Below, one piece after another: positions 1,447 through 59,167 of a stretch of 64,000 nt of DNA; position 1 is the stretch's first letter, and every line of letters starts with the position of its first letter. The notes under the pieces were generated by a model. That model was not told where the DNA came from and searched no databases. It saw only the letters and a program-made list of their open reading frames with translations. The translations under genes were made by a program, and so were the position numbers. Source of the DNA: an uncultured Candidatus Saccharibacteria bacterium (GTDB lineage: Bacteria > Patescibacteriota > Minisyncoccia > Phycocordibacterales > UBA918); contig CAYGKO010000003.1 in assembly GCA_964350735.1 (NCBI GenBank), forward strand, positions 52,452-116,451, read 5' to 3'.

Positions 1447-4400
1447 ATGTCTGACACGCCGAAACTGACTACTGACTTTGTGCATTTGCACGTGCATTCG
1501 CATTACTCCCTCCTTAATGCTGTTCCCACCCCAAAAGAGCTCGCTGCTACAGCCAAAGCCGACGGCCAAGACGCGCTGGCGATCACCGACGCTGGTGCGC
1601 TGTACGGAGCGATTGATTTCTATCAAGCCTGTCAAAAAGAAGGTATCAAGCCGATCATCGGCCTCGATGCTTTTATGGCACCCCGCACACGCCACGACCG
1701 CGACCCTATGGACAAGCCGCGGAGTCGCCTCGTCCTGCTGGCTAAAACCTTTAAAGGCTACCAAAACCTCATTATGTTGGTTACCCGTGCCAACACTGAA
1801 GGGTTTTACTATCGCCCCCGACTTGATCGTGAACTGCTCACCGAACTGCATGAAGACCTGATTTGTATCGTACCCTCTTTTGCTGGTGAACCAGCCCAAG
1901 CACTCAAGCACGGTGACACCGAAGCCGCCGGTGCTGCCCTTGATTTCTACAAACAACTCTTTAAAGACGATTGCTACCTCGAGATCAGCCACCACCCCGA
2001 GATGCTCGATCACCAAGAAAATCAAGAGCGCCTCAAGAAGCTGGCGGCGGACACCAACACTCCGCTCGTAGCGGCTCAAGATATTTATTACCTCACCAAA
2101 GACGACGCCATTGCTCGAGAAGCGATGATTAAGATCCAAAGTGGCGGCGTTGTAGACACCTCAGCCGAACGCTCCGAAGACTTCTCATTCACGACCCAGG
2201 AGCAAATGAAAGAACGGTTCGCCGATACACCAGAAGCACTTACCAATACGGTAAAAATCGCAGAGCAGTGTAACGTCGAGATTACCCTCGGCATGGAAGC
2301 GTGGAAGTTCCCGAATTACATCATTGAAAGTGGTAAAGAACCTGATGAAGAACTGCGAGATACTGCCTACGCCGGCGTGAAGTGGCGCGGACACGACATC
2401 AATGATGAGGTGGTAAAAAAGCGCCTCGACTATGAACTCGAGGTGATCAAAACTAAAGGCTACGCCAAGTATTTCTTGGTGGTAGGTGACTTGCTGCGTG
2501 AAGCTCGTGAGCGTGGCATCCTCACGACCATTCGAGGTTCGGTGGCTGGTTCGTACGCGACGTACGTGCTTGGAATTACCAACGTGGACCCCCTTGAATA
2601 CAAACTCCCTTTTGAACGATTCTTGAACCCGGAACGTCCATCAGCGCCTGATATCGATATGGACTTTGCCGATAACCGGCGTGACGAAATCATTGAGTAC
2701 GCCAAAAATAAATACGGTGAAGACAAAGTGGCTCAAATCGGCACCTTCGGAACCATGATGGCCCGCGCGGCCGTGCGTGACGTAGCGCGAGCACTCGGCC
2801 ACTCATACAGTACTGGAGACACGATCGCAAAACTCATCCCGATGGGTAGCCAAGGTTTTGCCATGACTATCGATCGAGCGCTTGAAATGGAACCTGATCT
2901 CAAAAAACTCTACAAAGCTGACAGCGAGTCGCGCGAAGTGATCGATCTCGCTAAGCGGATTGAAGGTCGGGTCCGGCACGTCGGTGTTCATGCGGCTGGT
3001 GTAGTAATAGCGCCAGAGCCACTCAATCAATACGTCCCCATCCAACTCGACTCCAAAACTGGCAAGTTCATCACTCAGTACGAAATGCATTCTGTTGGCG
3101 AAGATGGGGTTGGTCTCCTGAAGTTCGACTTTTTGGGTATTAAAAACCTCGCCATCTTAGCTGACGCGGTGAAGCGGGTGAAAGTTACGAGAAATGTTGA
3201 TGTCGATATTGAAAACATTCCGCTTGATGACGCCAAGACATTCAAGATGCTGGCTGAAGGTCAGACCATGGGACTCTTCCAGCTCAATGGCTCCGGGATG
3301 ACCTCGTTCTTAAAGCAGCTCCAACCAAGCAGCATTCACGACATCAATGCGATGGTGGCCTTGTATCGACCGGGACCAATGGAAATGATTCCAACGTATA
3401 TTGAGCGCAAACACAACCAATCCTTAATCACCTACCTTGACCCCCGCCTCGAGAAAATTCTCGATCGTTCCTACGGCGTGATCACCTACCAGGACGATGT
3501 GATGATGACCGCGATTGAACTCGCTGGCTATTCCTGGCTCGATGCCGACAAGCTGCGTAAAGCGATGGGAAAGAAAATTCCGGCAGTGATGGAAGCCGAA
3601 AAAGAAAAACTCATGCAAGGTTTCGCTGAGTACGGCAAACTCACTCCGGCACTGGCAGATAAACTCTGGAAGCTAATCGAGCCCTTTGCGGCGTACGGTT
3701 TTAATAAAGCCCACGCGGCGAGTTATGGCCGCGTCGCTTACCAAACCGCCTACATGAAGGCGAACTTCCCCGTCGAATATATGAGCGCGGTACTGACGGC
3801 AGACTCTGGTGACACCGAAAAAATCTCAGAAATTATTCACGAGTGTGACCGGATGGGTATCGAGGTATTACCCCCAGACGTCAACGAATCTTTCTCAGAC
3901 TTCACGGTGATTCCTGGTACCCAAACCATCCGCTTTGGACTCACGACGATTAAAAACTTCGGTTCTGGCATTGCTGACGCAATTATTGCTGAACGCAAAA
4001 AAGGTGGACCATTTGGTACACTGGCTGACTTCCTGACTCGTGTGCACGATAAAAATCTCAACAAGAAATCCCTCGAAGCGCTTGTCATGACTGGTGCGCT
4101 GAATAGCTTCGCTGAGCGTGGTCTGTTATACGCCAACATCGATACTATGCTTGCCTTCAACCGTGAACACGTCGCCGGCAAAGAGGCTGGTCAAGACTCG
4201 CTCTTTGGTGGTATGGAAACTACTATCAACGACCTTGTCCTTGAGAGCGCTCCTGAAGCCGACCAATCCCAAAAGCTCACTTGGGAACGAGAACTCTTGG
4301 GCGTGTATGTGTCAGGCCACCCGCTCGATGATCACCGCGAAGAATTGCAAAAAGGCGAACGGCGGATGATTGGCGACATTGTGAGTGCGGTCACAGATGG

Positions 4401-4719
4401 TCGTGAGATGGAGGTGGTGCAGATGAAGGGTAAGGTCGACACCGCTGGGATGATTGAAACCGTGAAAGAGCTTCTCACTAAAAAAGGCGATCGTATGGCC
4501 TTTGTCCAACTCTCCAATCACACCAGCACCATCGAAATGGTCGCCTTCCCCGAAGTCTTCCAAACCTACCGAGATCTCCTGGTGCCCGGTACCTGTGTGG
4601 CGCTCCGCGGCAAGCTCAATATTCGCAATGACGAACCAAGTATTCTCATTGATAAAATTAAAGTCCTGTCTCCAGCGCCAGAAACCAATTCAGTTGACGA
4701 ACCGCCAACAATTAGCTAG
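1447..4719 (+). CDS. dnaE: DNA polymerase III alpha subunit (short 1090-aa form with N-terminal PHP domain)
   Basis: HLHVHSHYSLL PHP motif, a polymerase core, and an OB-fold region near the C-terminus. Divergent from rnhB. Confidence 0.95.
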   Translation: MSDTPKLTTDFVHLHVHSHYSLLNAVPTPKELAATAKADGQDALAITDAGALYGAIDFYQACQKEGIKPIIGLDAFMAPRTRHDRDPMDKPRSRLVLLAKTFKGYQNLIMLVTRANTEGFYYRPRLDRELLTELHEDLICIVPSFAGEPAQALKHGDTEAAGAALDFYKQLFKDDCYLEISHHPEMLDHQENQERLKKLAADTNTPLVAAQDIYYLTKDDAIAREAMIKIQSGGVVDTSAERSEDFSFTTQEQMKERFADTPEALTNTVKIAEQCNVEITLGMEAWKFPNYIIESGKEPDEELRDTAYAGVKWRGHDINDEVVKKRLDYELEVIKTKGYAKYFLVVGDLLREARERGILTTIRGSVAGSYATYVLGITNVDPLEYKLPFERFLNPERPSAPDIDMDFADNRRDEIIEYAKNKYGEDKVAQIGTFGTMMARAAVRDVARALGHSYSTGDTIAKLIPMGSQGFAMTIDRALEMEPDLKKLYKADSESREVIDLAKRIEGRVRHVGVHAAGVVIAPEPLNQYVPIQLDSKTGKFITQYEMHSVGEDGVGLLKFDFLGIKNLAILADAVKRVKVTRNVDVDIENIPLDDAKTFKMLAEGQTMGLFQLNGSGMTSFLKQLQPSSIHDINAMVALYRPGPMEMIPTYIERKHNQSLITYLDPRLEKILDRSYGVITYQDDVMMTAIELAGYSWLDADKLRKAMGKKIPAVMEAEKEKLMQGFAEYGKLTPALADKLWKLIEPFAAYGFNKAHAASYGRVAYQTAYMKANFPVEYMSAVLTADSGDTEKISEIIHECDRMGIEVLPPDVNESFSDFTVIPGTQTIRFGLTTIKNFGSGIADAIIAERKKGGPFGTLADFLTRVHDKNLNKKSLEALVMTGALNSFAERGLLYANIDTMLAFNREHVAGKEAGQDSLFGGMETTINDLVLESAPEADQSQKLTWERELLGVYVSGHPLDDHREELQKGERRMIGDIVSAVTDGREMEVVQMKGKVDTAGMIETVKELLTKKGDRMAFVQLSNHTSTIEMVAFPEVFQTYRDLLVPGTCVALRGKLNIRNDEPSILIDKIKVLSPAPETNSVDEPPTIS

Positions 4720-4742: not shown

Positions 4743-4868
4743 ATGTACGACTTGCTTGGGATAATACCAATAATTGATTGGAGGCTCGCTCTGTTCCATT
4801 TCTGGACATGGTTTGATTCACTTCCGTCCGACCCCGTTGATGCGGGCTCTTGCCGTGGAATTCGGTAA
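4743..4868 (+). CDS. Candidate 41-aa hydrophobic small peptide (MYDLLGIIPIIDWRLALFHFWTWFDSLPSDPVDAGSCRGIR)
   Basis: GGAGGTGA SD at 4731-4738 sits 7 nt before the ATG at 4743. Stop TAA at 4866-4868 lies inside a terminator-like hairpin. Below the ORF-track size cutoff. Confidence 0.3.
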   Translation: MYDLLGIIPIIDWRLALFHFWTWFDSLPSDPVDAGSCRGIR

Positions 4869-4888
4869 GAGCCTCATCGGCTTTTTTT
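4845..4888 (+). terminator. Putative intrinsic terminator after dnaE and the small ORF (11-bp stem with one G-U pair, then a U7 tract 8 nt downstream)
   Basis: ggctcttgccg (4845-4855) pairs with cggtaagagcc (4863-4873); ttttttt at 4882-4888. Confidence 0.4.
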
Positions 4889-4990
4889 AGACAAAGTAGA
4901 CCAGCATTGTTGTATTCAATAATTTATTTTGAATTTGTTTCTAAACAAGATATTCTATACGTGCAAGTACGCAACCTTACGGAGGACGAT

Positions 4991-5302
4991 ATGCGACTTA
5001 AAGTCAGTTTTGCTTCAAATGTACCAGACGTGAAAGTCTGCTGGTACTTAATCCAAATCTGCGACGATGAGGGTGAGCTCTGCAACATCAAGGAGGGAGA
5101 TGAAGAGAAGCTTCGTGTGCTCATCCCCGGCATCGGGGAGATGTGTCGTAAAGTTCTTGGCGATGACTTCGTCAAACTCGACGATACCACCGACGACACG
5201 TCAGACATCGGTCTATGTGTCAAAGTGGGCACCTCACGTGGAAACAATAGATTTTCCTTTCGATCTCTACTCGGCTGGATCGAATTGCACGACCTCACCT
5301 GA
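4991..5302 (+). CDS. Hypothetical 103-aa acidic protein
   Basis: GGAGGA SD at 4981-4986 then ATG at 4991. Followed by a strong terminator. The ORF-track version (4850-5302) starts further upstream without an SD. Confidence 0.45.
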   Translation: MRLKVSFASNVPDVKVCWYLIQICDDEGELCNIKEGDEEKLRVLIPGIGEMCRKVLGDDFVKLDDTTDDTSDIGLCVKVGTSRGNNRFSFRSLLGWIELHDLT

Positions 5303-5310
5303 AGCTTGCT

Positions 5311-5340
5311 GCGCCCCGACATTCGGGGCGCACTTTTTTT
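5311..5340 (+). terminator. Rho-independent terminator
   Basis: gcgccccg (5311-5318), loop acatt, cggggcgc (5324-5331), then ttttttt (5334-5340). Confidence 0.85.
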
Positions 5341-5370
5341 GACAAAACAGAATCTAGGTGTAAGATTTTA

Positions 5371-5548
5371 TGTATCAGAGATTGCCTCGGCTACCAACCG
5401 AGGGCCGCACCGGTGCGCAAGCCTAATCTGAACCAATGAAGTGCTCTTCTGCATACAGAAGAGAAGCCCGGTGGAACCGCGATTACATTTGATCGTCCGA
5501 GCAAACATGCGACCCTGTCGTATGATTGCTCGGGCGTTTTATTATTTA
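5371..5548 (+). promoter_or_regulatory. Candidate T-box riboswitch leader (Thr specifier) with antiterminator/terminator switch
   Basis: T-box core GGUGGAACCGCG at 5470-5481. Antiterminator fold: A1 gcccgg (5466-5471) pairs with ccgagc (5497-5502); 7-nt bulge UGGAACC (5472-5478); A2 gcgat (5479-5483) pairs with atcgt (5492-5496). Competing terminator: 5494-5504 pairs with 5526-5536, followed by a U tract at 5537-5548. Specifier hairpin 5385-5403 has loop CUACCAA presenting ACC. Confidence 0.65.
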
Positions 5549-5633
5549 ACCTCTCAAAACTTCCGGTGCCTGCCTCAGCGGCTTCGCCTACAGAAGTCGG
5601 CTGCAGATGCTTCGGCACACACCGGAAGTCTCT

Positions 5634-5722
5634 GGATCTTAAAATTTTAAGCACTGTAGTGAAACATCTGCAGCGCGACAGCGCGAAGCCGTTGAATCTC
5701 AGTGCTTAAGATTTTAAGATCC
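5634..5722 (+). promoter_or_regulatory. Long imperfect inverted repeat (21-nt arms, 48-nt loop) ending 16 nt before the thrS ATG
   Basis: ggatcttaaaattttaagcac (5634-5654) is nearly complementary to gtgcttaagattttaagatcc (5703-5722). No U tract follows. Confidence 0.35.
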
Positions 5723-5738
5723 AACAAACCCCATAATT

Positions 5739-7508
5739 ATGAACACAAACCTAGAACACAAACGACACACCCTCGCTCACTTACTCGCTGCTGCGACCTT
5801 GGTCGAGTATCCTCATGCGAAACTCACCCTGGGGCCAGCCATCGACAACGGCTTCTACTACGACATCGACTTTTCTGCTGGTGAAGCGCCAGGTGACGGC
5901 GATCTAAAAAAGATCCAGAAACACATGAAGAAAATGCTCGGACAATGGACTAGTTTTGAACACAAGGAAGTCTCCGCTGATGAAGCTCGGGCTGTATTTG
6001 CAGACAATCAATTCAAGCTTGAACTTGTTAATGAAATTACCGAGAAAGGTGAAACTATCACTCTTTATACCGCCGGCGCTGGCACTAAAGCTGAGTTTAC
6101 TGATCTGTGCCGTGGTGGACACTCTGAGAATCCAGCTGAGGAAATAGCTACTGATGCCTTCAAGCTCGACAAAGTTGCCGGCGCCTACTGGCGCGGGAGC
6201 GAGGAGAACCCGATGCTGACCCGTATCTATGGCCTCGCCTTCGACACCAAAGAAGAGCTCGAGGTGTATGAAACGCAACTGGCCGAAGCCAAGAAGCGCG
6301 ATCATCGCAAGCTTGGTAAAGAGCTTGGTTTGTTTACGTTCTCAGAATTAGTGGGACCAGGTCTCCCGCTATGGACTCCCAAAGGCACCACCATGCGTCG
6401 TCTCATTGATGAATTTGTCACTGGTTTGCGCCGAGAGAAAGGCTATGAAGTAGTAACCATTCCCCACATCGCCAAAAAATCACTCTATGAAACGAGCGGT
6501 CACTGGAATAAATACAGTGAGGACTTATTTAAAGTCCGGGCTAAAGAAGATGACGATGCTGAAGAGTACGTACTTAAGCCAATGAACTGTCCGCATCATA
6601 CTCAAATTTTTGATGCTGAGCCGCGGTCATATCGCGATCTGCCCCAGCGCTACGCTGAAACCACTATGGTGTACCGGGCCGAGCAATCAGGTGAGCTCGC
6701 TGGATTGACCCGCGTCCTGTCTATTACGCAAGATGACGCGCACGTATTTTGTCGAGAATCACAACTGCGTGATGAGATCGAATCAATCTGGGACATCGTC
6801 AATGATTTCTACGGTGCCTTTGGTTTTGAACTCAAGGTTAGACTATCCTTCCACGATCCAGAACAAAAAGATAAATACCTCGGTGACAGCAGTATTTGGG
6901 AATCAACTGAAGGTCTTATGAAAGCAATCGCCGAGGATCGAAAAGCTGAATATTTCATCGGTATTGGCGAAGCTGCCTTTTATGCTCCCAAGCTCGATTT
7001 TATGGCGCTGGACTCGATTGGGCGCACCCATCAAGTTGCCACCATTCAACTTGACCGACTGATGCCAGAACGGTTCGGCCTTACGTGCACTAATGAACAG
7101 GGCGAGAAAGAAGGGATTGTAATGATCCACGCAGCGATTGCTGGTTCTCTGGAGCGCTTCTCAGCCGTCTTGATTGAACACCTTGGTGGCCACTTCCCGC
7201 TCTGGCTCTCGCCCGTGCAGGTCGCGGTGGTACCAGTAGCGGAGGCTCACAATGAGTTTGCTGCCGATGTGAATCGCCAACTTAAAGCGGCTGGTATCCG
7301 AACTGACTTTGACGACAGCAAAGAATCAATGGGTAAGAAAATCCGCAATGCCAAAAACGCCAAGCTCCCCTACTTCCTCGTAATCGGTGACAAAGAAGTG
7401 GAGCGCGGTGGAGTAACCCTCGAAGCACGTGATGGCAACTCCGTAGAACTCACCATTGAAGACATGATGAGTCGTCTACAAGAAGAAATTGAAACTAAGA
7501 AGCTGTAG
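5739..7508 (+). CDS. thrS: Threonyl-tRNA synthetase (589 aa, lacking the N-terminal TGS domain)
   Basis: HTLAHLLA editing-domain His motif, LKPMNCPHH, class II motifs, and an anticodon-binding C-terminus. Confidence 0.95.
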   Translation: MNTNLEHKRHTLAHLLAAATLVEYPHAKLTLGPAIDNGFYYDIDFSAGEAPGDGDLKKIQKHMKKMLGQWTSFEHKEVSADEARAVFADNQFKLELVNEITEKGETITLYTAGAGTKAEFTDLCRGGHSENPAEEIATDAFKLDKVAGAYWRGSEENPMLTRIYGLAFDTKEELEVYETQLAEAKKRDHRKLGKELGLFTFSELVGPGLPLWTPKGTTMRRLIDEFVTGLRREKGYEVVTIPHIAKKSLYETSGHWNKYSEDLFKVRAKEDDDAEEYVLKPMNCPHHTQIFDAEPRSYRDLPQRYAETTMVYRAEQSGELAGLTRVLSITQDDAHVFCRESQLRDEIESIWDIVNDFYGAFGFELKVRLSFHDPEQKDKYLGDSSIWESTEGLMKAIAEDRKAEYFIGIGEAAFYAPKLDFMALDSIGRTHQVATIQLDRLMPERFGLTCTNEQGEKEGIVMIHAAIAGSLERFSAVLIEHLGGHFPLWLSPVQVAVVPVAEAHNEFAADVNRQLKAAGIRTDFDDSKESMGKKIRNAKNAKLPYFLVIGDKEVERGGVTLEARDGNSVELTIEDMMSRLQEEIETKKL

Positions 7509-8442: not shown

Positions 8443-8474
8443 AAAAAAGCCCTGGCATTTGCCAGGGCTTTTTT
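8443..8474. terminator. Bidirectional intrinsic terminator between convergent genes
   Basis: aaaaaa, gccctggc, attt, gccagggc, tttttt. Confidence 0.8.
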
Positions 8475-8493
8475 GTGCTGCAGGGAGACAGCT

Positions 8494-9255
8494 TTATGCC
8501 AGCGCTTTAATCGCTTTCATAATCGCTACCTTCACAGCCGCTTCTTCTGATGGATAGGTACCATCGATCGTTTGGGTTAGAGCCTCAATCGCAGCTTGTA
8601 CTTTACCGTGTGGAGTTTGATCAGCTACTTCTTTCAACATGTCTGAAAGAATGACTGATTCTCCATTTTGATGTCGGTACAACGCATCAAAGTCGGCTGA
8701 AGCACCAGCGAGGGCAATCATTGGACGCTGTCCAATAAGTTGATACGCTGCTACCACATTTCCTTCAATGATCGCTTCAGCGAGTGAGTTAGTTACTGGA
8801 GCCAGTTCAAACTCAGACCGCACAGCCTCTTTCTTAGCTTCAGAAACTACAATTGTTTCTTCGACTACAAGTGGTTGTGCCTTGAGCTCTTCTCGCTTTG
8901 CTGTCAGCTCTTCCATTCGATCACAGTTGAGGACTACCCAACCGTCTTCAGTTGGATAGGTCACCTTAGCTTCAGTAATCACCTTTTCCAAGAATGTCCG
9001 TCGGTTTAGATCCTTATGACATACATTAATGAAGTGCTGCATCGCATCACCTGAGATAAGCACTCGGTGTGTATGTGCTAAGTTTTCAAGTTCTTGCATT
9101 TCCTGACTTAATTCAGTCACTTCAGGATCAACTAATTCTGGCACTTCAGTAGCTACTACCGCTGCGTAGCCAACAGCTGGATTACCCGTTGGTAAGTTAC
9201 TCGGTGCAACCGCAGATGCGATTGTATTAGTAACAGTTTCCACTGTTTCTACCAC
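8494..9255 (-). CDS. Hypothetical 253-aa cytoplasmic protein (GTG start), overlapping the upstream surface-protein gene by 7 nt
   Basis: ORF with no TM segments. The start codon at 9253-9255 is GTG. The first in-frame ATG is about 52 codons downstream. Arrangement suggests translational coupling. Confidence 0.45.
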   Translation of the reverse strand: MVETVETVTNTIASAVAPSNLPTGNPAVGYAAVVATEVPELVDPEVTELSQEMQELENLAHTHRVLISGDAMQHFINVCHKDLNRRTFLEKVITEAKVTYPTEDGWVVLNCDRMEELTAKREELKAQPLVVEETIVVSEAKKEAVRSEFELAPVTNSLAEAIIEGNVVAAYQLIGQRPMIALAGASADFDALYRHQNGESVILSDMLKEVADQTPHGKVQAAIEALTQTIDGTYPSEEAAVKVAIMKAIKALA

Positions 9256-18050: not shown

Positions 18051-20000
18051 CTACCGCGTCTCCCACTTTTCTGCTGCTACTGCTTTATAGACAGTATCCA
18101 TTACTGCATTCACTTCCTCATCAGTGAGGGTTTTTTCGTTTGATTGAAACACTAAACGGAAGGCTAGGCTGGTCCGGCCGTCTTTGGTGAACTCATCGAC
18201 GAAGGTAGTACGGACTCGCAAATCTCCAGCTGCTTCATTGAGGACTTTTTCGACATCCCCTTTCGTCAAATCTTCCTCTGGAGAATTTGACACCCACATC
18301 GCGATGTCACGACTCATATGCTGGTAGAGTGAAAACGGCTCGTAGACAATCTCGTCAGCTGCTGCAACTGGCTCGTACGCGGTCGGTGCCGGTAGCGCAC
18401 TAAAGAGCTTCGTGAAGTTAATTTCAGCCACTCCTTTCTCAATAGTCCAATCGATTGGACTATTGAGAAGCGTTTCTATTTCAGTGCACACTGATTCTAA
18501 AATCTTATCTTCTTTGCCGGTATACCCGCTCGACTTTAGACGGACACCGAGGCAAAGTGCGATGTGTTCGGTAACTCCTAAGTCACCCCCCTTATCGAAG
18601 ACCGTCCCGATCTCAAATACCCTCGTATCAGTCGCGCCAAATAAATCAGTCCGACCAGCATTAGCGTCAAGTGTCTCGGTGATGTTTTTAATTAAAGATG
18701 AACGCAAAAAACTTTTATCACTCGCTAGTGCATTACGGAGTTGCACGGTATCTTTCTTTCGAAACGACGAAGTGATCACTTCAGAGAAGCCGAGCTGCAG
18801 TAAGCAGTCTCGTACTTTCTCGCTGTAATAATGTCGGGCATTTAGTTCAGTGAGGGCGATCGGTTCTGGTACAACTGACTCCACTTTGTCATAGCCATGC
18901 AGTCGACCGATCTCTTCAATGAAGTCTTCTTCAATAGTCAAATCAGTCCGCTCAGTAGGGCCAGTACACTGCAACACCTCATCTTCAATCACTACCGTGA
19001 TTCCAGCTCGTTCCAAAATAGCTACCATGGCAGGCACGGCAAGTGACAGCCCCAACAGAGCATTCACTGTCTCTGGACGCACGATGACTGTCGGCACTTT
19101 CAGCTCTTGCAGATACACATCCACCATACCTTCACACTGTCCACCGGCAATCTCCGTAATCAACTTGATGATATCGGCTTGCGCGTATGGTGGCAGAGCC
19201 CGTGACGGTTCGTTTTCAAAGCGCTTACTCGCATCAATCACAATCCCGAGGTTACGAGCTGTCTTCCGGGTGATAGTGGGGTTCCAGTGGGCAGCTTCGA
19301 TGATGACTTTCGTCGTATCAGCGTGCACACCAGCAAACCGACCACCCTTCACTCCAGCGAGTCCAATCGGTGTATTAGATGAATTATCTACCACCAAGAC
19401 TTCTGTACCGGTTAGTTCTACAACGCGATCTTCATCCTTGCCGCCTTCAGCGAGCAAGCTGACTGTCTCACCTACTTGTGCGTAGCGCACCCCAAACCGC
19501 CAGGCACCATCTACTTGCGGAAACAAATCGGCGTCATAAGCATGCAGTGGCTGCCCGAGCGCATACATAACGTAGTTAGTCGCATCGACAATATTATTGA
19601 TCGGACGTTGTCCGAGGGCTTGAAGGCGGGTCTGGAGCCAGGCCGGTGAGTCTTTGATTTCAATACCAGTAATGAGTGACGCCGTAAAGCGTGGACAGAT
19701 TTCAGCTGACTCAATATCAACACTAATAGTATCGAGTGGTGCAATCTCAGGAGTGTTTTGTAGCGGATCGTGGACCAACGACTGCTTAAGCAGCGTCGCA
19801 ATTTCTCGAGCAATTCCCCGATGACACAGACAGTCTGAAGACCGGTTCGGCAGCACATCAACATCAATTACCCAATCATCACCTTTTTGTTCAACCCCTT
19901 CAATTTCAAATGAGTGGAAGGTCAACAAACCAGCCAGCGCTTCAGCTGACGGAATATCGGCACCTAAATAATCTTGCAACCAGTTATACGAAACTAACAT
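18051..20000 (-). CDS. pheT: Phenylalanyl-tRNA synthetase beta subunit (649 aa, shortened)
   Basis: N-terminus MLVSYNWLQDYL, B3/B4 and B5 regions, and a C-terminal anticodon-binding-like domain. Confidence 0.9.
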   Translation of the reverse strand: MLVSYNWLQDYLGADIPSAEALAGLLTFHSFEIEGVEQKGDDWVIDVDVLPNRSSDCLCHRGIAREIATLLKQSLVHDPLQNTPEIAPLDTISVDIESAEICPRFTASLITGIEIKDSPAWLQTRLQALGQRPINNIVDATNYVMYALGQPLHAYDADLFPQVDGAWRFGVRYAQVGETVSLLAEGGKDEDRVVELTGTEVLVVDNSSNTPIGLAGVKGGRFAGVHADTTKVIIEAAHWNPTITRKTARNLGIVIDASKRFENEPSRALPPYAQADIIKLITEIAGGQCEGMVDVYLQELKVPTVIVRPETVNALLGLSLAVPAMVAILERAGITVVIEDEVLQCTGPTERTDLTIEEDFIEEIGRLHGYDKVESVVPEPIALTELNARHYYSEKVRDCLLQLGFSEVITSSFRKKDTVQLRNALASDKSFLRSSLIKNITETLDANAGRTDLFGATDTRVFEIGTVFDKGGDLGVTEHIALCLGVRLKSSGYTGKEDKILESVCTEIETLLNSPIDWTIEKGVAEINFTKLFSALPAPTAYEPVAAADEIVYEPFSLYQHMSRDIAMWVSNSPEEDLTKGDVEKVLNEAAGDLRVRTTFVDEFTKDGRTSLAFRLVFQSNEKTLTDEEVNAVMDTVYKAVAAEKWETR

Positions 20001-23856: not shown

Positions 23857-23893
23857 CCCGTTCGTTTCACTCACTCCACTCCTCTCGTATCGG

Positions 23894-23966
23894 AGCCACC
23901 TGTCAGATTCGAACTGACGACCTGCGGTTTACAAAACCGATGCTCTACCAACTGAGCTAAGGTGGC
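23894..23966 (-). tRNA. tRNA-Thr (anticodon UGU), discriminator U, CCA not encoded
   Basis: Manual cloverleaf: acceptor GCCACCT/AGGTGGC, D arm GCTC/GAGC, anticodon stem TCGGT/ACCGC with loop TTTGTAA, T arm GTCAG-TTCGAAT-CTGAC. Confidence 0.85.
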
Positions 23967-29498: not shown

Positions 29499-30521
29499 AT
29501 GTTATACTTTACCCGTATGTCACAACAATATGATTTCGTTGCCTTTGGCGACATTGTAGTCGATGCTTTTATTCAATTAAACAAAGACATGGCTGATGTC
29601 AGCCAAGACCTTGATACCGGTAGAAAGACGCTGCAGATGCCGTTTGGTAGCAAACTACCATACGAAGACGTTACTGTTGTTAATGCGGTTGGAAATTCAC
29701 CAAACGCTGCAGTTTCTGCCCATCGCCTTGGCTTAAACACCGCTCTCGTAACCAGTGTTGGAACCGACCGCTACGGAAAAGACTGTTTAGATGCCCTTCG
29801 AACTGAAGGCGTGCATACAGACTACGTAAAGCAGCACGAAGGTAAAGAAACAAACTACCACTATGTATTGCGATACGGCCCAGAGCGGACCATCCTCATC
29901 AAGCATGAACAGTATCCATATGTAATGCCAGACTTTGCTGAACCACCTCGATATATTTATTTCTCATCTATTGGTGAGCATGGGGTTGATTTCCATTTCG
30001 AACTCGCTAAATACATCAAAGCCAATCCCGAAACTAAATTAGTCTTCCAACCTGGAACCTTCCAAATCAAATTGGGAGCGGAAAAACTACGGGAACTATA
30101 CGAAGTGACTGAGATCTTTTTCTGCAACAAAGAAGAAGCTCAAGAAATCCTCGGTAGCGACGAACGAGATGTACCAACCCTGATCCGTGCCTTCAAAGAA
30201 CTCGGACCAAAGATGCCGGTAATTACCGACGGACCAAACGGAGCTTATGTAGTAGATGAAGACGACCAGGCCTGGCACATGCCAATGTACCCAGATCCCG
30301 CTCCACCAGTAGACCGTACTGGTGCTGGTGATTCATTCTCTTCAACTTTCACTGCTGCTATTGCTTTGGGTAAAACACCAGCTGAAGCACTCTCGTGGGG
30401 ACCAATCAACTCTATGAGTGTCGTGCAGCACATCGGTGCTCAAGCTGGACTCCTCTCAATGGACCAACTACAGTCATACCTAGCAGACGCTCCAGAAGAG
30501 TACGTGGCAAAAAAGATCTAA
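29499..30521 (+). CDS. PfkB-family carbohydrate kinase (ribokinase-like)
   Basis: DRTGAGDSF motif and an N-terminal GD-rich fold. Alternative ATG at 29517. Confidence 0.8.
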   Translation: MLYFTRMSQQYDFVAFGDIVVDAFIQLNKDMADVSQDLDTGRKTLQMPFGSKLPYEDVTVVNAVGNSPNAAVSAHRLGLNTALVTSVGTDRYGKDCLDALRTEGVHTDYVKQHEGKETNYHYVLRYGPERTILIKHEQYPYVMPDFAEPPRYIYFSSIGEHGVDFHFELAKYIKANPETKLVFQPGTFQIKLGAEKLRELYEVTEIFFCNKEEAQEILGSDERDVPTLIRAFKELGPKMPVITDGPNGAYVVDEDDQAWHMPMYPDPAPPVDRTGAGDSFSSTFTAAIALGKTPAEALSWGPINSMSVVQHIGAQAGLLSMDQLQSYLADAPEEYVAKKI

Positions 30522-30535
30522 CTTCGGGCGCAAAC

Positions 30536-30570
30536 ATAAAAAAAGCCGCAATTACTTTGCGGCTTTTTTT
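30536..30570. terminator. Bidirectional intrinsic terminator
   Basis: A run, gccgca, attactt, tgcggc, ttttttt. Confidence 0.8.
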
Positions 30571-30582
30571 ATTTAAAACTCA

Positions 30583-39710: not shown

Positions 39711-42700
39711 CTAAATTGAACCTCCTCCTCCGCCCCCACCGCCAGTCGCTTGGTGATACACCCGTACCTGAATCTCATCGATCCGGATTTCGTTGCTTGA
39801 TGGTGCACCAGTAACCCGGATAGCAAAGTTGGTGTTGTTAAGCTCAGTCGGTGTCCAGGCGCGACCCCAGAGATCAGCCGGTGCACCGAGCGTAACCACC
39901 GTATCGCTCGTAGTGAGAGTCGGACTAGTCTTAGCAGCAGTCCAGCTGGTACCGCCATCGTACGAGAGTTCCACATCGATCGTCCCGGCGTCCGTAGTAC
40001 CAGACACCTCGAGCTTCACCGCAATTCCCACAATCTCATTACTGCCCGGGATACTGTGGCTGTAGTTGGTGTAGTTGTGAGTGTCGGCGGCACTGGTGGT
40101 GGCGTAGGTGCCGTCAGTCTGATCGTAGGCATTAGCAGCGCTGTTCCAGCTGCCACTATTGGCACTTGGGCGGTTGAAGCCAACTTCTGCACCAATGGTA
40201 CTACCACCAGTATTGGTATCAACTGCACTCCCACCTCCACTACCCCCTCCAACTTCTTCACTCCGACCGGCTGGAGCGTCGCCGCCAATCGATCCTTGAG
40301 AACTACCACCTCCACCACCACTCCCCTGATTACCTCTAATATGTTGCACTGAATTTACTGAACCATTTACATTGATTACTTCTTCAAATACTACCCCAAT
40401 ACCTTGCACACCACTCGTGGCTAGACTCAACACTAGCATTTCAGATCGTGAGACTGCATTAATATCAAACGTCACTAAATAATTTTGGTTTGTAGTGACT
40501 AGGAAATCATCGGCAAACACAATTGTACCCGACTCGCCACTGAAGGTGAACTCACCACTAGCATCGAGTACCTGGTCGGTTACATCATACTCAGCATCAT
40601 TATCTGTATCCTGGTACAAAACAATATTTGGGATACTGCTGGTTGAGACACTATTGCTGATACCTGACACATTGAGCGTTAGCGCTGTAACGGTTGCGCT
40701 CTCACCAGTTGGAGTAAGCTGAAATGCAAAGGCTGGTTGACTCGTTGCATTCTTAAAACTAAACGCACTACTTACCTGACCTACAGAATGATTAGCAATT
40801 GTAATCACACCTGGCTCTGCCAGCGCATAGAAGTCAGTAGTGGTTGATTGGTTGAGATATTCAGCGGCGATCCAGGCTGGAGCGCGTATAGAATTAGAAA
40901 TTCGTACCTCATCTAATGAGCCGTCTAGATTTCCACCCGCGCTGCGTTCTGCCCCCAATCGTACTGGTCGATCAGTCTCGAAATCTGGTTTTGAATTGAC
41001 AGCATCATTAGAATCAAATAAAGACCCATCAATATACTCATCAACATCATTGGCGCTTGTATCAAATTGCAATGTTACGTGCTTCCAGCCTGCGCCAGCA
41101 ATAGTAGACCAGCCGTTAGTAATAAAATTACCAGTTCCAGAAGTGTGAAAAATGGCCGTGTTATTTGTGGTGCCTCGACGTTGAAACGACCAGTCATTCC
41201 CAGCTCCATTTCCCTTGGAATAAAGCGCAGCAAAACTATTTTGTGAAGCATCCATATCAACCCACAGACTAACTGCGTAATCAGAAGCAGAGAAATCAAA
41301 TTCGCTAGTGCTCGGTATTTCAATGTAATCAGAAGCACCATCGAGATCTTGGGCCAAGCCGAGTCGTCCAGCTACATCACTCCCACTCGTCATCGATGTA
41401 CCAGTTCCGTGGTTTCCAAAACTTGTAGAATCTCTGTATCCACCGGCATCTGTATTTCCATCTTCGCCTAAGTGATACACCGCTACATACCCGTTACTCC
41501 ACACATTCTCCGCTCCATACGTAGCACTCGTAATGTAATCAATCGAACTAGAGCCGTTGTAGTAAATCCTAAAATGAGTATCCATAGTAGAAGAAATAAG
41601 ATTGGCCTTGAAGTGCAGCTCGCCTGTCTGAAGGGTCGTCGAGGCCGATACTAATTCGCGCGGTAACTCAACTGGTGAGCCGCTATTTGTGGTCACCCGA
41701 ATGTCACCAGCGTCACTCGATACTCCAGCCCAGAAATCTGCACTCAAGTCTGACAGATCAATATATACCGGGAAATCAGCTAGATCTTCATCAATATTGG
41801 TGTAGTCGATGGTGACAACATCGTATTCAGTCCAGTCAGTATCATTCCAAGGAACCGGCGCTGCTCCCGCCTCAAGGGTCCAGTTAGTGTTGTTTCCTGA
41901 GTCAACTGACTGATAGGCAGTGACCCCTCCGGCAGTGATTGTTGCGTCACTATCTCGCACATCAACAAATGACACCGATACTTGTATACCCGTATCAAGA
42001 TCCCAAGCAGTGCCTGGATCTGAAGAGCGGAGATACACTGGGCGACCATCTTCACCGGTCCAGTCCACACTATCAAAGCTATAAGTTTCTCCAGCTAGAA
42101 ACTGCACCGATGAGGAGGCCTCAATCGTAAAGAGGCCATCAGTTTCAGCTGGTGCCCCGAAAATGAATGATTGGGTTGTGCTACCTGAGGCTGAGTCATT
42201 ACGTACCGTCAGTGCATTAAAGGCATCGGTACCTGACAGCGAACCAGTAGCTGTCTGCGTACCAGATCCAGCGAAGATTACTTCTCCACCACTCCCATAT
42301 ACGCCATTATTCGTGTAATCACCGAGCACAGTCAGTTCGCCTGTCCCACTGAGTGAGCCAGTTGCATCAATCACCATGTCAGCAGTGGTAGCATTGGTAA
42401 AGGTGTAACTACCGGCAATCACCACTGTATTACCCGCAATAGCATCTGTCAGAGCGCCGGTAATTTGCTCTCCTGAGCCAGTGAGCGTGGTTGTACCACT
42501 CCCGGCAATCACTGCCCCACTGCTATCAAACGATCCAGCGATTGAAAGCTCATTTGGAAGAGCTGCTGTCCCTCTAGATTCGATGACAAAGTTGGTTGTA
42601 CTAGCGTTATCAGCAAACAATATTGTACCGACCGCCGAGATGTCATTGAATGCTGAAGATCCTGTAAGAACTCCTGAGGCAGACAGATCGTCTAAATCAT

Positions 42701-45700
42701 ATTCATTAACATCATCTCCGCTGAATCCAACAACAAACAACTTTGTACCGTTAGCATTAAATGCCATACCCGTCGGAGATGTCTCTTCTGCAGCAATACT
42801 GTAACTAGTAACGAAACTAGCGGTTGAGATTGAGAACGCCGTACTCAGGACATACTCATTGATATCATTACCAATATTCCCTAATACAAACATCTTCTCT
42901 CCTGTCTTATTAAAGAGTAGCGCTAAAGGGGTTGTATCTTGAGAAGAAACACTGAACTCAGCCACGTGACTGGCTGTAGACACATCAAATACAGTACTAA
43001 GAGAATACTCATTCACCTCATCGGGCGTTGATCCGAGAACATACATCTTTGTACCGTCAGTGTTAAACGTTACATCAGTCGGAGTGGAGTTATCTGCCAC
43101 CACACTAGTAGCATGAGAGAATGAGGCTGATGAAATATCAAAAGCGGTACCTAGTGCATACTCGTTAATATCATTACCTGCGTCGCCAGGAACATACATC
43201 TTTGTACCGTCAGTGTTAAATGCTACATTGAGTGGACTCGTGTCTTGGAGCGCCACACTCGTCGCATGAGTGAACACTGCAGTAGAAACATCGAAGCCAC
43301 TACTAAGCGCATACTCGTTAATATCATTACCACTGTCTCCAGCTACAAACATCTTGGTACCGTCGGTGTTGAATTCAACTCCTCTCGGCGTGAGGTCTTC
43401 AGTAGCAACCCTAAACGACCCGTCAAAATAAGCAGTAGAGATATCAAAAGCACTATCAAGGAAATAGCGATAGACATTGTCGCCAGTCGAACCAATGACG
43501 AACATTTGTGTGCCGTCATTGTTAAACCGCATATCGTTTGGAGTTGCCTCTTCAAGTGCGACACTAAAGCCATCTACAAACGTACGAGTTGATGCATCAA
43601 ACGCTCCACTGAGCGTATACTCACTAATATCATTACCGGTATCACCTACAATAAACATCTTGCTGCCGTCGGTATTAAACTCAATTCCAGTTGGAGTAAA
43701 ATCTTGCGCATTCACAAGCGTCGCATCAACAAACGCCGCTGAAGACACGTCCCACGGTGAACCCAAGGTATATTCGTTCACGTCATCACCACTACTCCCG
43801 ACTACAAACATCTTGGTGCCGTCAGTATTAAAACTCAAACCTTCCGGTGTAAGCTCTTGAAGTGACACACTCGTAGCGTGAGTATAGGCAGCGCTCGACA
43901 CATCAAATGCCGACGTCAGTTCATACTGAAACACCGAATCATTGGTGGTTCCTAGAACAAACATCCTCGTACCCGTTGCGCTGAACGTTACTGCCGTTGG
44001 AGAAGTCTCTTGAGACGCAATCCTAAAGCTATCAACAAAACGGGCGGTCGAAAGGTCGTATGGCTCTATTAATGCATACTCATTAACATCATCTCCAGAA
44101 GACCCAATCACAAATAATTTTGTACCGTCAGTATTGAAAGCCAACCCTTCTGGGCTTGCTTCTTCGGAACTAACAGAAAACACATCATTATAACTGAGAG
44201 TGGATACTTCATAGGCCTCACCGGCAAAATACACCGTTCCAGAATTGTTTTCGAATACCCCGTTATTGGTGAGCGACCCGGCAATTGTTAGGCTAGTAGC
44301 TGGAGCAGTGGTCGTAGCCCCAGCTTCAATTGTAATATTCGTAGTTGACGCTGCTTGTCCAAAGGAGACTGAACTACTAGCAATTATGCGCACATCTGCC
44401 AGACTGGACGCTCCCGTAAAATCCCCAGAGATACTCGCTGGAGTCGTGCTACTAAAACGCACCAATCCTTCATTGGCATTAAAGGAACCGTTGTTTGTTA
44501 GATCGCCAGTGACCGTTAACACAACCGGTGCCGTCGTACTCCCAGCGGCTGCAATGGTTATATTTTCTACTTCTGCTTCACTACTGAAAGTATAGGCCCC
44601 AACAACAAAGGTATTACCCAGTTGGTTATCTCCAGTCAAACTGCCAGAAACCGTCTTATCTGTCCCCGTCAAGTACAAACTCTGTCCAGCGGTAAAAGAT
44701 CCATTATTGGTAAAACCTCCACTCGTTTCAAAGTTGCTGGTAGATGCAATTGAGACCGACACTCCAGCGTCGATTGTAAAGTCGGTCGTTGACGCATTAT
44801 CAGCAAATAGCACATTTCCAAATGACGCCGTTGTTGTGGCTAAAGCTGAAGTGCCAGACAAGGTACCACTAAGCGTACTGGTCGAAATAACGGCCTCAAA
44901 CGTGAACGAAGACGCTAGATCAAAGCCACTGAAGGTATCGCTAAAACTACCGCTCACAAACATAGAGAAGCCGTCCGGACTCATGTCTATTCCTGATGGC
45001 AAGGTTTCAATATCAGACAAATCATATTGGCGACCATCGTATGATGCGGTTGATACATCAAACCCCGCCGACAGTGTGTATTCAAATACTGAATCAGTTT
45101 GGTCACCTAAAATAAACATCTTGGTTCCGGCGGTGTTAAAAACAATTCCCGACGGTTGCGTGTCTTCACTCGATACATCAAAACTATCTACAAACGAGGC
45201 GGTCGACACATCCCATGCCGGACTGAGTGTGTATTCATTTACATCCATTCCAGCCGTCCCGACTACAAACATTTTGTCGCCTGTAGCGCTAAGTGCCATA
45301 GCTGCCGGTGACGTCTCTTGTGAACCAATCGGCTCAGTATCTACCTGAGTAGCGCTCGAAATATCCCACGGGATACTAAGTGAAAATTCATTAATGTCAT
45401 TCCCTGTATCTCCCAGTATGTACATTCGACTACCGGTAGCATTGAACTGCACATCTTTCGGCGCAGTATCGAAGCTTTTAATAGAAAACCCTTTCTCATA
45501 CTCAGCAGTTGTAAGATCGTACGGTGTACTGACATCAAATTGCCCCACCATGCCAGAAAGTCGATACACACTGTACAATTTTGTTCCATCGTCATTAAAG
45601 GTGACCGCCTCCGGTACTGAATCAGTTTTTACCAACGAGTCTGTCGACACATTAGCAGCTCCCCCAAAAGAGAAAACTGGATCAAGTGCATATTCATAAA

Positions 45701-48700
45701 TTCCCCCCGTGGAAGGATCGGTCACATATGCCTTACTGCCACTGGCATTAAAGGTAATGTCGTAGAGATCTGTCACTTCAGTAAATGAGAGCGTGATGCT
45801 TGTGCCAATTGAACCAGGATCATAGGCTGAGCTGAGATCGTACACTGTAAGCGTGTTGCCGGTGTAATCACCGACAAACATTTTAGTACCATCGTCGTTA
45901 AATTTAATAGTTAACGTGTCTACAAAGATTGAGTGCGAAGCGTCAAAAGAGGCCCCTGATAGAGCGTACTTTGGGGAGAGGCCATATTCATAGATAGCAC
46001 CAGATCCGTTTGCTTGGTACAGTATCGATCCATCATCATTGAATTCAAGTCCAAATCCGCCGCCTGCAAAAGAGTCGGTAGCACTAGCGGTCGATACATC
46101 CCAGTCCGTACTGAGCTCGTACTCATATACATCCCCAGTTCCAGAGTCACTGATAAACATTTTGCTTCCAGTCGCATTAAATACGATAGCAACTGGTGAT
46201 ATTCCCTCAGTACTTACATCGAAACTGTCGGTGTAGCTTAAAGTGGAGAGGTCATAGTCAACACTAAGCGCATATTCATCTACATCATCCTCATTATCAT
46301 CAACTACATACGCCTTACTTCCATCATTATTGAAGCGAATCGCAAATGGCGTCGCACTATCACTTGGATAGGTGGTATCCTGAAATAATACTCCCCCAAA
46401 ACTATACGGCGCATCAAGAGAATACTCAAAATATCCTGCGAAAGCAGCGGTTAGGAACAACCGATCTCCATCACCATCAAAATCCACTCCTGTAATCGTA
46501 TTAGCACCCAAATCTCCTGAGGTATTGAGTGTACCTCCAAATACTGCCGTGGAAACATCAAAGGCAGTGCCCAGATCATACTGATAGACTTCCCCATTTG
46601 AATCCCCGCCGTCAGTAACAAACATCTCATCACCGGTCGGACTGAATGTTAGTGCATACGGACTGTCGGTTTCAGTACTCACACTGAACGCATCAACATA
46701 ACTGAGGGAGGTAATGTCCCACGCTGATAACGTAAATTCACTGACATCATCGGCGCTTTCGTCACCAACAAACAACTTAGTGCCCGCACTATTAAATGAG
46801 AAACTAATCGCGGTAGTTACTTGTGAGAAAATATGAGTATCAGTGGCACTCGCCGTTGAAACATCAAAGGCCGTACTGAGATCATAGGCATAGAGCGTAT
46901 TATTTCCACCGCCCAAAACAAACATCTGGGTACCTGAAGTATTAAACTTCACTCCAAAGGCAAAGCCGTCTTCTCCGCTCACATCATACCGGGAAGCCAG
47001 ACCAGCGGTGGACAAATCGTACGCAGTAGACAAATTATACATTTCGATCACATCATTAGTGACGTCAGTGAATGCTACCTTGGTCCCTGAGTCCACAATG
47101 GACATTCCCCAGAAGCTAGAGTTAGCCGCTGAAGTAGTCACTGCATTTTTGAAAGACACCGACTGTCCAGACTGAATGTCCAGCGTCGACTCTGTACTGT
47201 CATAGGTCCCGTCGTTTGTCAGACTCCCCGCCAATGTAAGCGTAGCTGGAGCTTCAAAGGTTGCTCCGCTTGGAATTGTAATTGACCCCGGCAGTGTTGC
47301 ACCAGAAATTGTAGTAATCGCAGTACCTCCATTAAGGGTACTACCTGGCCACACGTACAGCTCTTTTCCACCCTGAACCGTAAGTGTCTCAGCTGCCGCT
47401 GACGCTAGATACATGATGTCGCCATCATCTGATGCATCGTATACGGCGAAGTCTGCAATAGTAGTCGAAGAAATACCGGCTTCATGACGCGAAATAACGT
47501 GATCTTGATATAGATCAAGCGTTGTGATATCGGTCGAAGAAGAATTAGCAACAGTTACCAGCGATCCTTGAATACTACTATCACCATCCACCCAAACCAC
47601 CACGCCTGATCCGTCATCTATGGTATGACCTTGCGTAATCGCCACCTCCCACAGACCGGTAGTCTGAGCTGATGAACCGGTATAGACCTGGACTGGATTA
47701 CCAGCCGCTACTTTAATTACCGAACTAGTTGCAACAACCGTACTTCTATCAGCTTGGTACAGCGTACCTGAAAAAGTAATCGGAGCAGCTTGTGCAGTGT
47801 TGTAGAAGTCGGTGGTAGTAGCTTGATTGAGATGTTCAGCTGAAATCCAAGCAGCTGAACGTTCAACGGTACTAACCCGAAATTCGTCTATTGAACCTTC
47901 GTGATAGTTAGCACCCGCGTCTCCTCCTAAATAAAAACCAGTCAGGTCAACATTAGGATTGTCAGTCGAGATACTACTTGTTGCACTCACACCATCAAGA
48001 TAAATGCCTTTGCCTGTCCCTGAGGTCACGTGCACCATTGTCCATTTATCATCATAGGCTGTGTAACTAGTAGATATACGACCTGGTGTAGTACAGCAGG
48101 TACCAAAATCCCAATAAACAATATCCGCCCAGGGCGCTGATATCACAAGACGTTCATTCCCACCACCAACTGCCCAACCTGCCGCAATGTGAAAAGTCTC
48201 AGCCGCAGCTGCAGCTGCAACGTTATTCCAAAATTGTACAGTGACAGTATTATTGCTGTTGCTCCAGACATTATCTGTATCGGTTAATAGCTCATCATTA
48301 CCGTCGAACTGAATCGCCTGACCGCCTGCTAGGCGTCCAGTGACTGAGTCCCCTGACACAAACGATCCAATAGTAGCTAGGTCGTAATCATTACTCGTTG
48401 AGTCATACACCGTGGCTCCAGAAGGATCTTCTTGCAAATGGTAGACACTATAGTAGCTGTTCGTCCAGACATTCTCCGCTCCGTAGGTATCGTCGGTTGC
48501 GTACGCTGCCGTAGTTGAGCTGTTGTAGTAGATTCGAAACACCGTATCAGTCGTCGAAGAAATACTATTTGCCTTGAAGTGCAACTCTCCAGTTTCTAAG
48601 GTGGTAGAAGCAGACACCACTTCACGCGCCAACTCGACTGGTGAACCATCGTTCGTAGTCACGCGAATATCTCCCCCTCCATCACTGACCGTACTCCAGA

Positions 48701-48961: not shown

Positions 48962-59167
<10,206 letters not shown>

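Follow-up and report, generated by a model that had tools for sequence, protein, structure and literature searches.

T-box riboswitches are known in the Firmicutes, Actinobacteria, Chloroflexi and Deinococcus-Thermus, and in two Deltaproteobacteria (PMC2494555). In the actinobacterial ileS T-boxes, Stem I contains a K-turn and is followed in linear order by a long Stem II, which has an S-turn, and by a IIA/B pseudoknot that includes the F-box (PMC10651847, PMC11297988). The Stem II S-turn buttresses the codon–anticodon helix, and control is exercised through sequestration of the ribosome-binding site (PMC11297988, PMC10651847). The collection TBDB relies on Rfam-type models, supplemented by a class II model run on the Actinobacteria and on class I matches with a truncated Stem I (PMC7778990). 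Here we describe the leader of thrS, the gene of threonyl-tRNA synthetase (ThrRS), in a 64,000-nucleotide (nt) stretch of contig CAYGKO010000003.1; the whole of this stretch is called the window below.

The leader (5376–5548, plus strand) lies upstream of thrS, the gene that it is proposed to regulate. Judging from its sequence and from the sequences of its relatives, it is very probably a transcription-attenuating T-box riboswitch that makes the expression of thrS depend on uncharged tRNA-Thr. The original prediction, made from the letters of the window, was a T-box with a threonine specifier in the thrS leader of a genome resembling the Candidate Phyla Radiation (CPR), and all three parts of it hold. 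The comparative data indicate that this attenuator is widespread in thrS leaders of the Patescibacteria, where its decoding module appears reduced and differently organised. No report of a T-box in the Patescibacteria, the CPR or its classes was found in the full-text searchable literature, in which subscription journals are incompletely covered, so that this is not a proof of novelty.

The discriminator half of the thrS leader

The thrS gene (5739–7508, plus strand) encodes a protein of 589 amino acids (aa); its homologues are ThrRS, with the Pfam domains tRNA-synt_2b and HGTP_anticodon. Its ThrRS relatives, the best of them up to 86% identical, place the genome in the Patescibacteria/Paceibacteria. 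The comparison covered 80 related loci of Patescibacteria species genomes; like the best ThrRS relatives, they come from metagenome-assembled genomes labelled as Paceibacteria, Parcubacteria, Nomurabacteria, Kaiserbacteria or Patescibacteria (individual loci are denoted by L and a number). In 27 of them the exact motif TGGAACCGCG occurs on the coding strand 80–400 nt upstream of thrS, the 86%-identical relative L081 also having it. The aligned set comprises 28 leaders; the MAFFT alignment was unguided, and the structure was written from the window sequence.

The T-box sequence CCGGUGGAACCGCG (5468–5481) agrees with the consensus AGGGUGGNACCGCG at 12 of 14 positions, and GGUGGAACCGCG is invariant across the 28 aligned leaders. 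The 12-mer GGTGGAACCGCG lies at 5470–5481, where the original prediction had placed it, and is the sole match in the 64 kb even if one mismatch is allowed. With one mismatch allowed, 0.48 matches are expected by chance in the window, and hence the 12-mer alone is not significant. It is preceded by the RRRNG–Stem III–AA motif, as defined in PMC7778990. This region (5431–5465, plus strand) consists of a linker (5431–5437), the RRRNG motif GAAGUG (5438–5443), Stem III of 8 base pairs (bp; 5444–5451 with 5456–5463, loop CAUA) and the AA dinucleotide (5464–5465). The AG of RRRNG and the AA after Stem III are invariant in the alignment. Stem III covaries, and it aligns to Stem III of the Rfam T-box model RF00230 with high posterior probability.

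The antiterminator (5466–5502, plus strand) follows directly. Helix A1 is formed by GCCCGG (5466–5471) and CCGAGC (5497–5502) with a single C·A mismatch at 5468/5500, and shows compensatory changes at three of its six pairs. The 7-nt bulge UGGAACC (5472–5478) separates it from helix A2 (5479–5483 with 5492–5496), whose first pair is G·U and which may be extended to 7 bp. When 5466–5502 is folded alone, exactly this structure is obtained, at −9.0 kcal/mol, in agreement with RNAalifold. The intrinsic terminator (5494–5548, plus strand) is a hairpin at 5494–5536 of 11 + 8 bp and −30.1 kcal/mol, followed by the U tract UUUUAUUAUUU (5537–5548). Its arms are 5494–5504 and 5526–5536, with the 8 bp as an inner extension. 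The 5' arm of the terminator contains the 3' strands of both A2 and A1, and the two folds are mutually exclusive. The difference between −9.0 and −30.1 kcal/mol is the usual T-box balance, in which the antiterminator prevails only with the help of the tRNA. The two helices with the A1 mismatch, the bulge, the terminator with its U tract and the exclusivity of the folds had been described in the original prediction, and the present analysis recovered each of them and added the inner extension of the terminator.

An equivalent terminator is present in all 28 leaders: a hairpin of −16 to −39 kcal/mol starting from CGYCC and followed by a U run, with differing stem sequences. A simple terminator scan missed the one in the window, as its loop is longer than the limit of that scan.

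RF00230 was expected to match this leader, and it does, at 5361–5503 with 31.9 bits and E = 2.3e-5 in a search of 551 nt (5250–5800), though well under the gathering cut-off. Stem III and the antiterminator are aligned with high posterior probability, and 85 model positions of Stem I are deleted. The orthologous leaders score 24.6–39.5 bits against the same model.

Conservation in thrS leaders of the Patescibacteria

All 27 loci contain CAGAGAUUG, the hairpin, CCUAAUCUG, Stem III and the T-box. The common architecture starts with CAGAGAUUG, a 6-bp stem with the loop CUACCAA, 15–72 variable nucleotides and CCUAAUCUG. It continues with a linker ending in RRRNG, Stem III, AA, A1, UGGAACC, A2, the 3' strand of A1, the terminator and a U run. 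In the alignment, 92.7–93.5% of the paired cells are indeed paired, compared with 30–40% for slid partners. Changes on both sides occur in 18 of the 29 pairs, and none of 500 shuffles matched any of the observed measures. RNAalifold, given no structure, recovers the specifier hairpin (P2, below), Stem III and the bulged antiterminator.

A family covariance model built from this alignment assigns 93–130 bits to the window and the 27 genome loci; the window itself scores 119.8 bits (E = 5.5e-30). Nothing else in 635 kb scores well, except a remnant in L018. A scan of metagenomes with the pattern CTAATCTG-N(28-58)-GGTGGNACCGCG yielded at least 120 loci. Among the first 100 of these the family model found 85 full-length matches, with 68–126 bits, and in total it recovers more than 110 loci. 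Wherever the downstream sequence suffices, the next open reading frame (ORF) in the metagenome loci is ThrRS. The architecture of A1, bulge, A2 and terminator with an ACC loop, on which the original prediction was to stand or fall in related genomes, is thus seen, with compensatory changes, in the leaders of 27 orthologous genome loci and of about 100 metagenome loci.

The linkage to thrS is exclusive, one contig (L127) aside. A regular-expression search for the T-box core in 203 sequences returned thrS leaders, canonical T-boxes of other phyla (L085, L144, L160) and chance matches in coding regions only, and pheT of the window (18051–20000, minus strand) has no T-box. L127 has two complete copies on one contig. 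The first (563–689) stands before a hypothetical ORF of about 167 aa (861–1363), the second (1486–1648) before thrS. This is the sole case seen of the family before a gene other than thrS, and it suggests that a gene was inserted and the leader duplicated in the process. In L117, L118, L136 and L161, the T-box match is followed 66–104 nt further by a ThrRS ORF of about 410 aa. These proteins begin at the catalytic core and are devoid of the N-terminal editing domain.

Of 96 distinct leaders, 95 have ACC as the triplet in the hairpin loop and a single one, L161, has ACG; hence the triplet never leaves the threonine codon box. The base following it is a purine in all 96. The N of the UGGN bulge is A in 94 of them, UGGG being found in L117, L151 and L185.

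In some lineages the element is evidently being lost. In L018 the 32-bit remnant (2821–2896) keeps P1, the closing helix described below, the ACC hairpin and a degenerate CCUAAUUUU box, having lost Stem III, the T-box and the terminator. In L114 a degenerate extra copy (534–658) precedes an intact T-box. Given this decay within the family, and given that a T-box is absent from about two thirds of the Patescibacteria thrS loci sampled, the leader in the window might be a relic, that is, an inherited T-box-like sequence that does not regulate thrS in this genome. We regard this as very unlikely. The copy in the window has all the conserved positions and helices, and its family score is among the best; the terminator and its U tract are intact; and the closest relative, L081, preserves the structure by compensatory substitutions. 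A coding reading of the element, as suggested by mechanical ORFs at 5391–5654 (minus strand) and 5441–5650 (plus strand), was dismissed, as the stems are paired and indels of any length are seen.

Position N of the bulge can be compared with the window's tRNA-Thr. UGGA predicts a tRNA ending in U73-C-C-A, and the original prediction had pointed to a tRNA-Thr gene of the window with a uridine discriminator, naming the GGU isoacceptor as the tRNA sensed. The discriminator is indeed U73, but the anticodon is UGU and the gene (23894–23966) is on the minus strand. This is the sole tRNA-Thr available, the UGU isoacceptor rather than the ACC-reading GGU, and so it backs the U73 prediction by analogy only. 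The gene (23892–23966 with the following bases) continues with CC and then g, so the gene encodes the CCA end only in part, and a CCA-adding enzyme must supply the rest. A lone ARAGORN call of 'Thr(ggt)' looks spurious.

The decoding half and the probable threonine specifier

The two boxes CAGAGAUUG and CCUAAUCUG pair with each other in helix P1, in which CAG, a 2-nt bulge and AUUG face UAAU-CUG. The 5' strand (5376–5384, plus strand) consists of CAG (5376–5378), the AG bulge (5379–5380) and AUUG (5381–5384), and includes a run of five purines, AGAGA. The 3' strand (5424–5430, plus strand), in which UAAU is invariant, closes the decoding module. In this register 100% of the cells are paired over the 28 sequences, and compensatory changes in the lower three pairs are seen in L079 (CGG/CCG) and L019 (CAA/UUG). 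Uncompensated variation is confined to the two bulge positions. In the upper pairs, one change seen among metagenome variants, A to G, is consistent with the pairing, giving G·U. A register pairing CAGA with UCUG was taken at first and later replaced by the present one, which fits all 28 sequences; a pure AGAUU/AAUCU register was rejected, since it would produce mismatches in L079, L004, L034 and L037.

The specifier hairpin P2 (5385–5403, plus strand) follows the 5' strand of P1 without an intervening unpaired base, and just about 9 nt stand 5' of these 19 nt. Its 6-bp stem (5385–5390 with 5398–5403) has compensatory changes at all six pairs. The loop CUACCAA (5391–5397) contains, as predicted, the threonine codon ACC (5393–5395) followed by a purine, the conserved A5396, and it fits the anticodon-loop pattern C32-U33-NNN-R37-A38. 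The variable branch region (5404–5423, plus strand) may form two mini-hairpins, CCG-CAC-CGG (5405–5413) and GC-GCAA-GC with a GNRA loop (5415–5422), a tentative pairing. The minimum-energy fold of 5373–5432 is a four-way junction as well. Over the 28 leaders this branch has 15–72 nt and one or two hairpins, with no conserved sequence except a terminal C(C).

Often the variable branches share a near-identical palindromic hairpin. UAUGUAUCAUAUAUGAUACAUA is found in five unrelated genomes (L004, L005, L009, L068, L077) about 30–60 nt past the specifier hairpin, and another palindrome, CCCUAGGCAAGGCCUAGGG, occurs in L026, L034 and L039. This suggests a recurrent inserted element or a shared binding site.

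A promoter-like site (5339–5366, plus strand) has the −35 box TTGACA (5339–5344), a 16-nt spacer and the −10 box TAAGAT (5361–5366), with 10 of 12 matches in a consensus scan. L081 has TTGACA-17-TAGGAT equally far from P1. The predicted transcript would start about 2–3 nt upstream of P1, just 5' of 5376. The first 55 nt of the transcript would fold as a compact junction, P1 closing P2 together with one or two small variable hairpins. The P2 loop would then offer ACC and the 3' purine, that is, ACC(A), to the anticodon loop of tRNA-Thr, its GGU anticodon being bound in a loop–loop (kissing) complex. The canonical discriminator about 40 nt downstream (RRRNG, Stem III, AA, A1, UGGAACC, A2) would test the 3' end of the tRNA bound by the leader. 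If the tRNA is uncharged, UGGA could pair with U73-C-C-A, stabilising the weak antiterminator and blocking the terminator, and the polymerase would continue into thrS. If the tRNA is charged or absent, the terminator would form and transcription would end at the U tract 5537–5548.

Several observations weigh against this mechanism. tRNA-Thr(GGU) was not found by ARAGORN in the window, the 28 loci or 1.5 Mb of collected sequence. The 31.9 bits of the RF00230 match compare with a gathering cut-off of 93, and the T-box is missing from the whole-window Rfam scans both at the gathering threshold, where tRNA alone is reported, and at E ≤ 0.5. The upper part of P1 (AUU with AAU) is invariant in the genome set and so provides no covariation, and a few metagenome variants of P1 (GAAUG, GCAUG) would weaken the helix. 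No K-turn, AG-bulge/distal-loop platform, Stem II S-turn or F-box with a IIA/B pseudoknot could be recognised by eye in the family alignments. Finally, a known T-box that has no platform depends on Stem II and IIA/B, and one that has no Stem II depends on the platform (PMC11297988). Because known T-boxes depend on one or the other, high-affinity capture of tRNA by the decoding module is only putative.

The low Rfam score reflects about 85 deleted positions in Stem I, together with the Stem II/IIA region. At 25–40 bits against the cut-off of 93, the whole family is invisible to Rfam-based pipelines and to collections derived from them. As to the missing supports of the codon, inspection of the family alignments did not reveal an internal Specifier Loop with an S-turn either. 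At the level of sequence, the leaders share no conserved GA/GA tandem and no AGUA/GAA motif. No complementarity between the loop and the linker is conserved across them, and the 3' box pairs with the 5' end instead. CCUAA is only loosely F-box-like, and the purine run AGAGA might act like an S-turn. The P1-closed junction may take the place of the platform of Stem I as well as that of Stem II and the IIA/B pseudoknot.

It is highly improbable, in our estimate, that the leader, though an attenuator derived from a T-box, does not use the ACC loop as its specifier. The identity of the tRNA would then be read elsewhere or not at all, and the 3' half would be a generic sensor of uncharged tRNA or be driven by some other factor acting on the P1 junction. 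The lack of any recognisable S-turn, K-turn or platform for presentation of the codon fits such a reading, and CAGAGAUUG and CCUAAUCUG have no assigned role beyond P1. However, on a stem that varies freely, the ACC of the loop is invariant save for one synonymous ACG; a purine comes next, as canonical specifiers require; and the element is tied to thrS alone.

In E. coli, autoregulation by ThrRS via tRNA mimicry is established. We give scarcely any credence to an analogous operator here, with ThrRS binding P2 and controlling termination or translation: although P2 resembles an anticodon arm in size and in the pattern of its loop (6-bp stem, C-U-N-N-N-A-A) and the element is linked to thrS alone, the triplet in the loop is the codon ACC and not a threonine anticodon (GGU, UGU or CGU), so that no identity element of ThrRS is mimicked, and the invariant UGGNACC bulge, RRRNG–Stem III–AA and the antiterminator/terminator pair fit sensing of the tRNA 3' end rather than a protein operator.

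Other leader elements and likeness to known systems

The T-box is not the only structure in the thrS leader. From the terminator to the start codon there are another 190 nt (5549–5738), which fold very stably (−81.8 kcal/mol, z = −8.5) and contain a second structured domain (5559–5723, plus strand) with hairpins at 5559–5628 and 5633–5723. The apical part of hairpin 1 carries box 1 (5575–5613, UCAGCGGCUUCGC...GCUGCAGAUGCUUC), that of hairpin 2 box 2 (5661–5695, GAAACAUCUGCAGC...GCGAAGCCGUUGA). Box 2 is approximately the reverse complement of box 1, and inverted repeats I2–I4 were found here. Given this complementarity, a long-range duplex (about 2 × 14–17 bp, −48 to −70 kcal/mol) could form in competition with the local hairpins. 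Both boxes are kept in L081 and in the leaders of about 12 other thrS genes; in every case they stand between the terminator of the T-box and the gene. The stems flanking the boxes have other sequences in these relatives and are still paired, in L081 with a compensatory change. Tested as a dispersed repeat or miniature inverted-repeat transposable element, the spacer showed no second copy in the window, and no known RNA family was matched in Rfam. The second domain is a candidate for a second switch or for an element of RNA processing or stability, such as a substrate of RNase III.

Other lineages have distinct conserved structured inserts of 60–300 nt at the same place. Type A, containing GGAGAAA...GAGGCUCC, is seen in L002, L010, L034, L039, L068 and L127; type B in L013 and L017; and type D in L007, L009 and L026. 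Type C opens with AAAUGAGCAAAUG and contains AUUGCGAAUUUAGUUCCGAAU; it is found in L011, L037, L077, L018, L099 (as a tandem pair), L171, L158, L166, L195, L201 and L120. Inserts of types A–D had no Rfam match in the loci searched. In several relatives the thrS start codon is just 16–27 nt past the terminator U tract. No Shine–Dalgarno-like sequence precedes the thrS start in the window (5724–5741) or at the equivalent positions of L025, L031, L006 and L079.

Upstream of the leader are dnaE (1447–4719), an ORF of 150 aa (4850–5302) and the own terminator of that ORF (5310–5332). No Pfam family matches the 150-aa ORF, which separates dnaE from the T-box. L081 does not have this ORF (compared region 2631–2644), its T-box promoter overlapping the end of dnaE, and a C-terminus resembling that of the ORF's product (…NRFNFRSLSGWIELHDFV) is situated upstream of the T-box in L127. 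Elsewhere in the window, two giant ORFs are adjacent on the minus strand (39711–48953 and 48962–59167; 3080 and 3401 aa). Weak Rfam matches to Leu_leader and Thr_leader at 8443–8549 and 30487–30573 (27.8–34.3 bits, all below gathering) resemble terminator hairpins, not attenuators.

By its probable mechanism and by its discriminator domain the leader is a T-box, and its decoding half, as far as sequence can tell, is a new structural variant. We classify it so because neither of the known solutions for holding the tRNA is recognisable and because an apical specifier is combined with a transcription terminator. A broader proposal, which we would put at even chances, is that these leaders constitute a third structural class of T-boxes, specific to the Patescibacteria and to thrS. 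The class would be defined by a P1-closed three- or four-way junction in which a mimic of the anticodon arm presents the codon in a 7-nt loop of the U-turn type, and it would work without the elbow-docking platform, the K-turn, the Stem II S-turn and the IIA/B pseudoknot. The same proposal includes the second domain as a conserved two-state RNA that adds to the control of thrS in some lineages, that of the window among them. If it is true, no natural tRNA-decoding module known so far would be smaller, and the CPR would have its first characteristic class of riboswitch.

A widespread family in the Patescibacteria widens the phylogenetic range of T-boxes, and their occurrence in the CPR would fit the proposed affinity of the CPR with T-box-carrying lineages of the Terrabacteria. 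A module of about 55 nt, with neither the platform nor Stem II and the pseudoknot, would redefine the minimum needed for specific recognition of a tRNA, and its small size makes it attractive for structural work and for engineered small tRNA sensors. Standard annotation misses the element in well over a hundred related genomes, and the family covariance model could seed a new RNA family. Regulation in the Patescibacteria is very reduced, and they depend on hosts for amino acids; retention of the T-box on thrS alone points to the charging of tRNA-Thr as a monitored signal.

Among the described systems, the original prediction had likened the leader to the short T-boxes of actinobacterial ileS. 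The likeness holds for the specifier in an apical loop; it does not extend to the junction layout or to the mode of control, which here is predicted to be transcription termination and not sequestration of the ribosome-binding site. The class II ileS T-boxes of Mycobacterium tuberculosis and Nocardia farcinica (PMC11297988, PMC10651847) also have a short Stem I and no elbow-docking platform, and their discriminator core is the same. In the window, in contrast, pairing of the 3' box with the extreme 5' end closes a junction and makes no pseudoknot; a terminator serves as the expression platform, and both the gene, thrS, and the phylum, Patescibacteria, differ. The glyQS T-boxes, the smallest well-studied natural ones, are also transcriptional and have no Stem II and no IIA/B pseudoknot, neither of which is recognisable in the window leader. 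Their compensation is a Stem I of full length, which stacks on the elbow of the tRNA through its distal platform (PMC11297988), and the leader in the window dispenses with that too.

The class I T-boxes of the Firmicutes (RF00230; in B. subtilis, thrS, tyrS and glyQS) occupy the same position in leaders of aminoacyl-tRNA synthetase genes. They share with the window the T-box sequence, the 7-nt UGGNACC bulge between A1 and A2, RRRNG–Stem III–AA and a mutually exclusive terminator. The specifier logic is the same as well: the codon fits the amino acid of the gene, obeys the C-rule and is followed by a purine. The differences concern the 5' half. Class I leaders have a long Stem I with a basal K-turn, an S-turn Specifier Loop and a platform formed by the AG bulge and the distal loop, none of which inspection of the sequence revealed here, and their Stem II and IIA/B pseudoknot have no recognisable counterpart. 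The specifier in the window is atypically placed, in the terminal 7-nt loop of a 6-bp hairpin inside a closed junction, and the leader reaches about a third of the gathering threshold of RF00230.

In the E. coli thrS operator, feedback on thrS likewise acts through a leader hairpin shaped as an anticodon arm. The operator hairpins of E. coli show an anticodon and bind ThrRS, whereas the leader in the window shows a codon and has a sensor of the tRNA 3' end.

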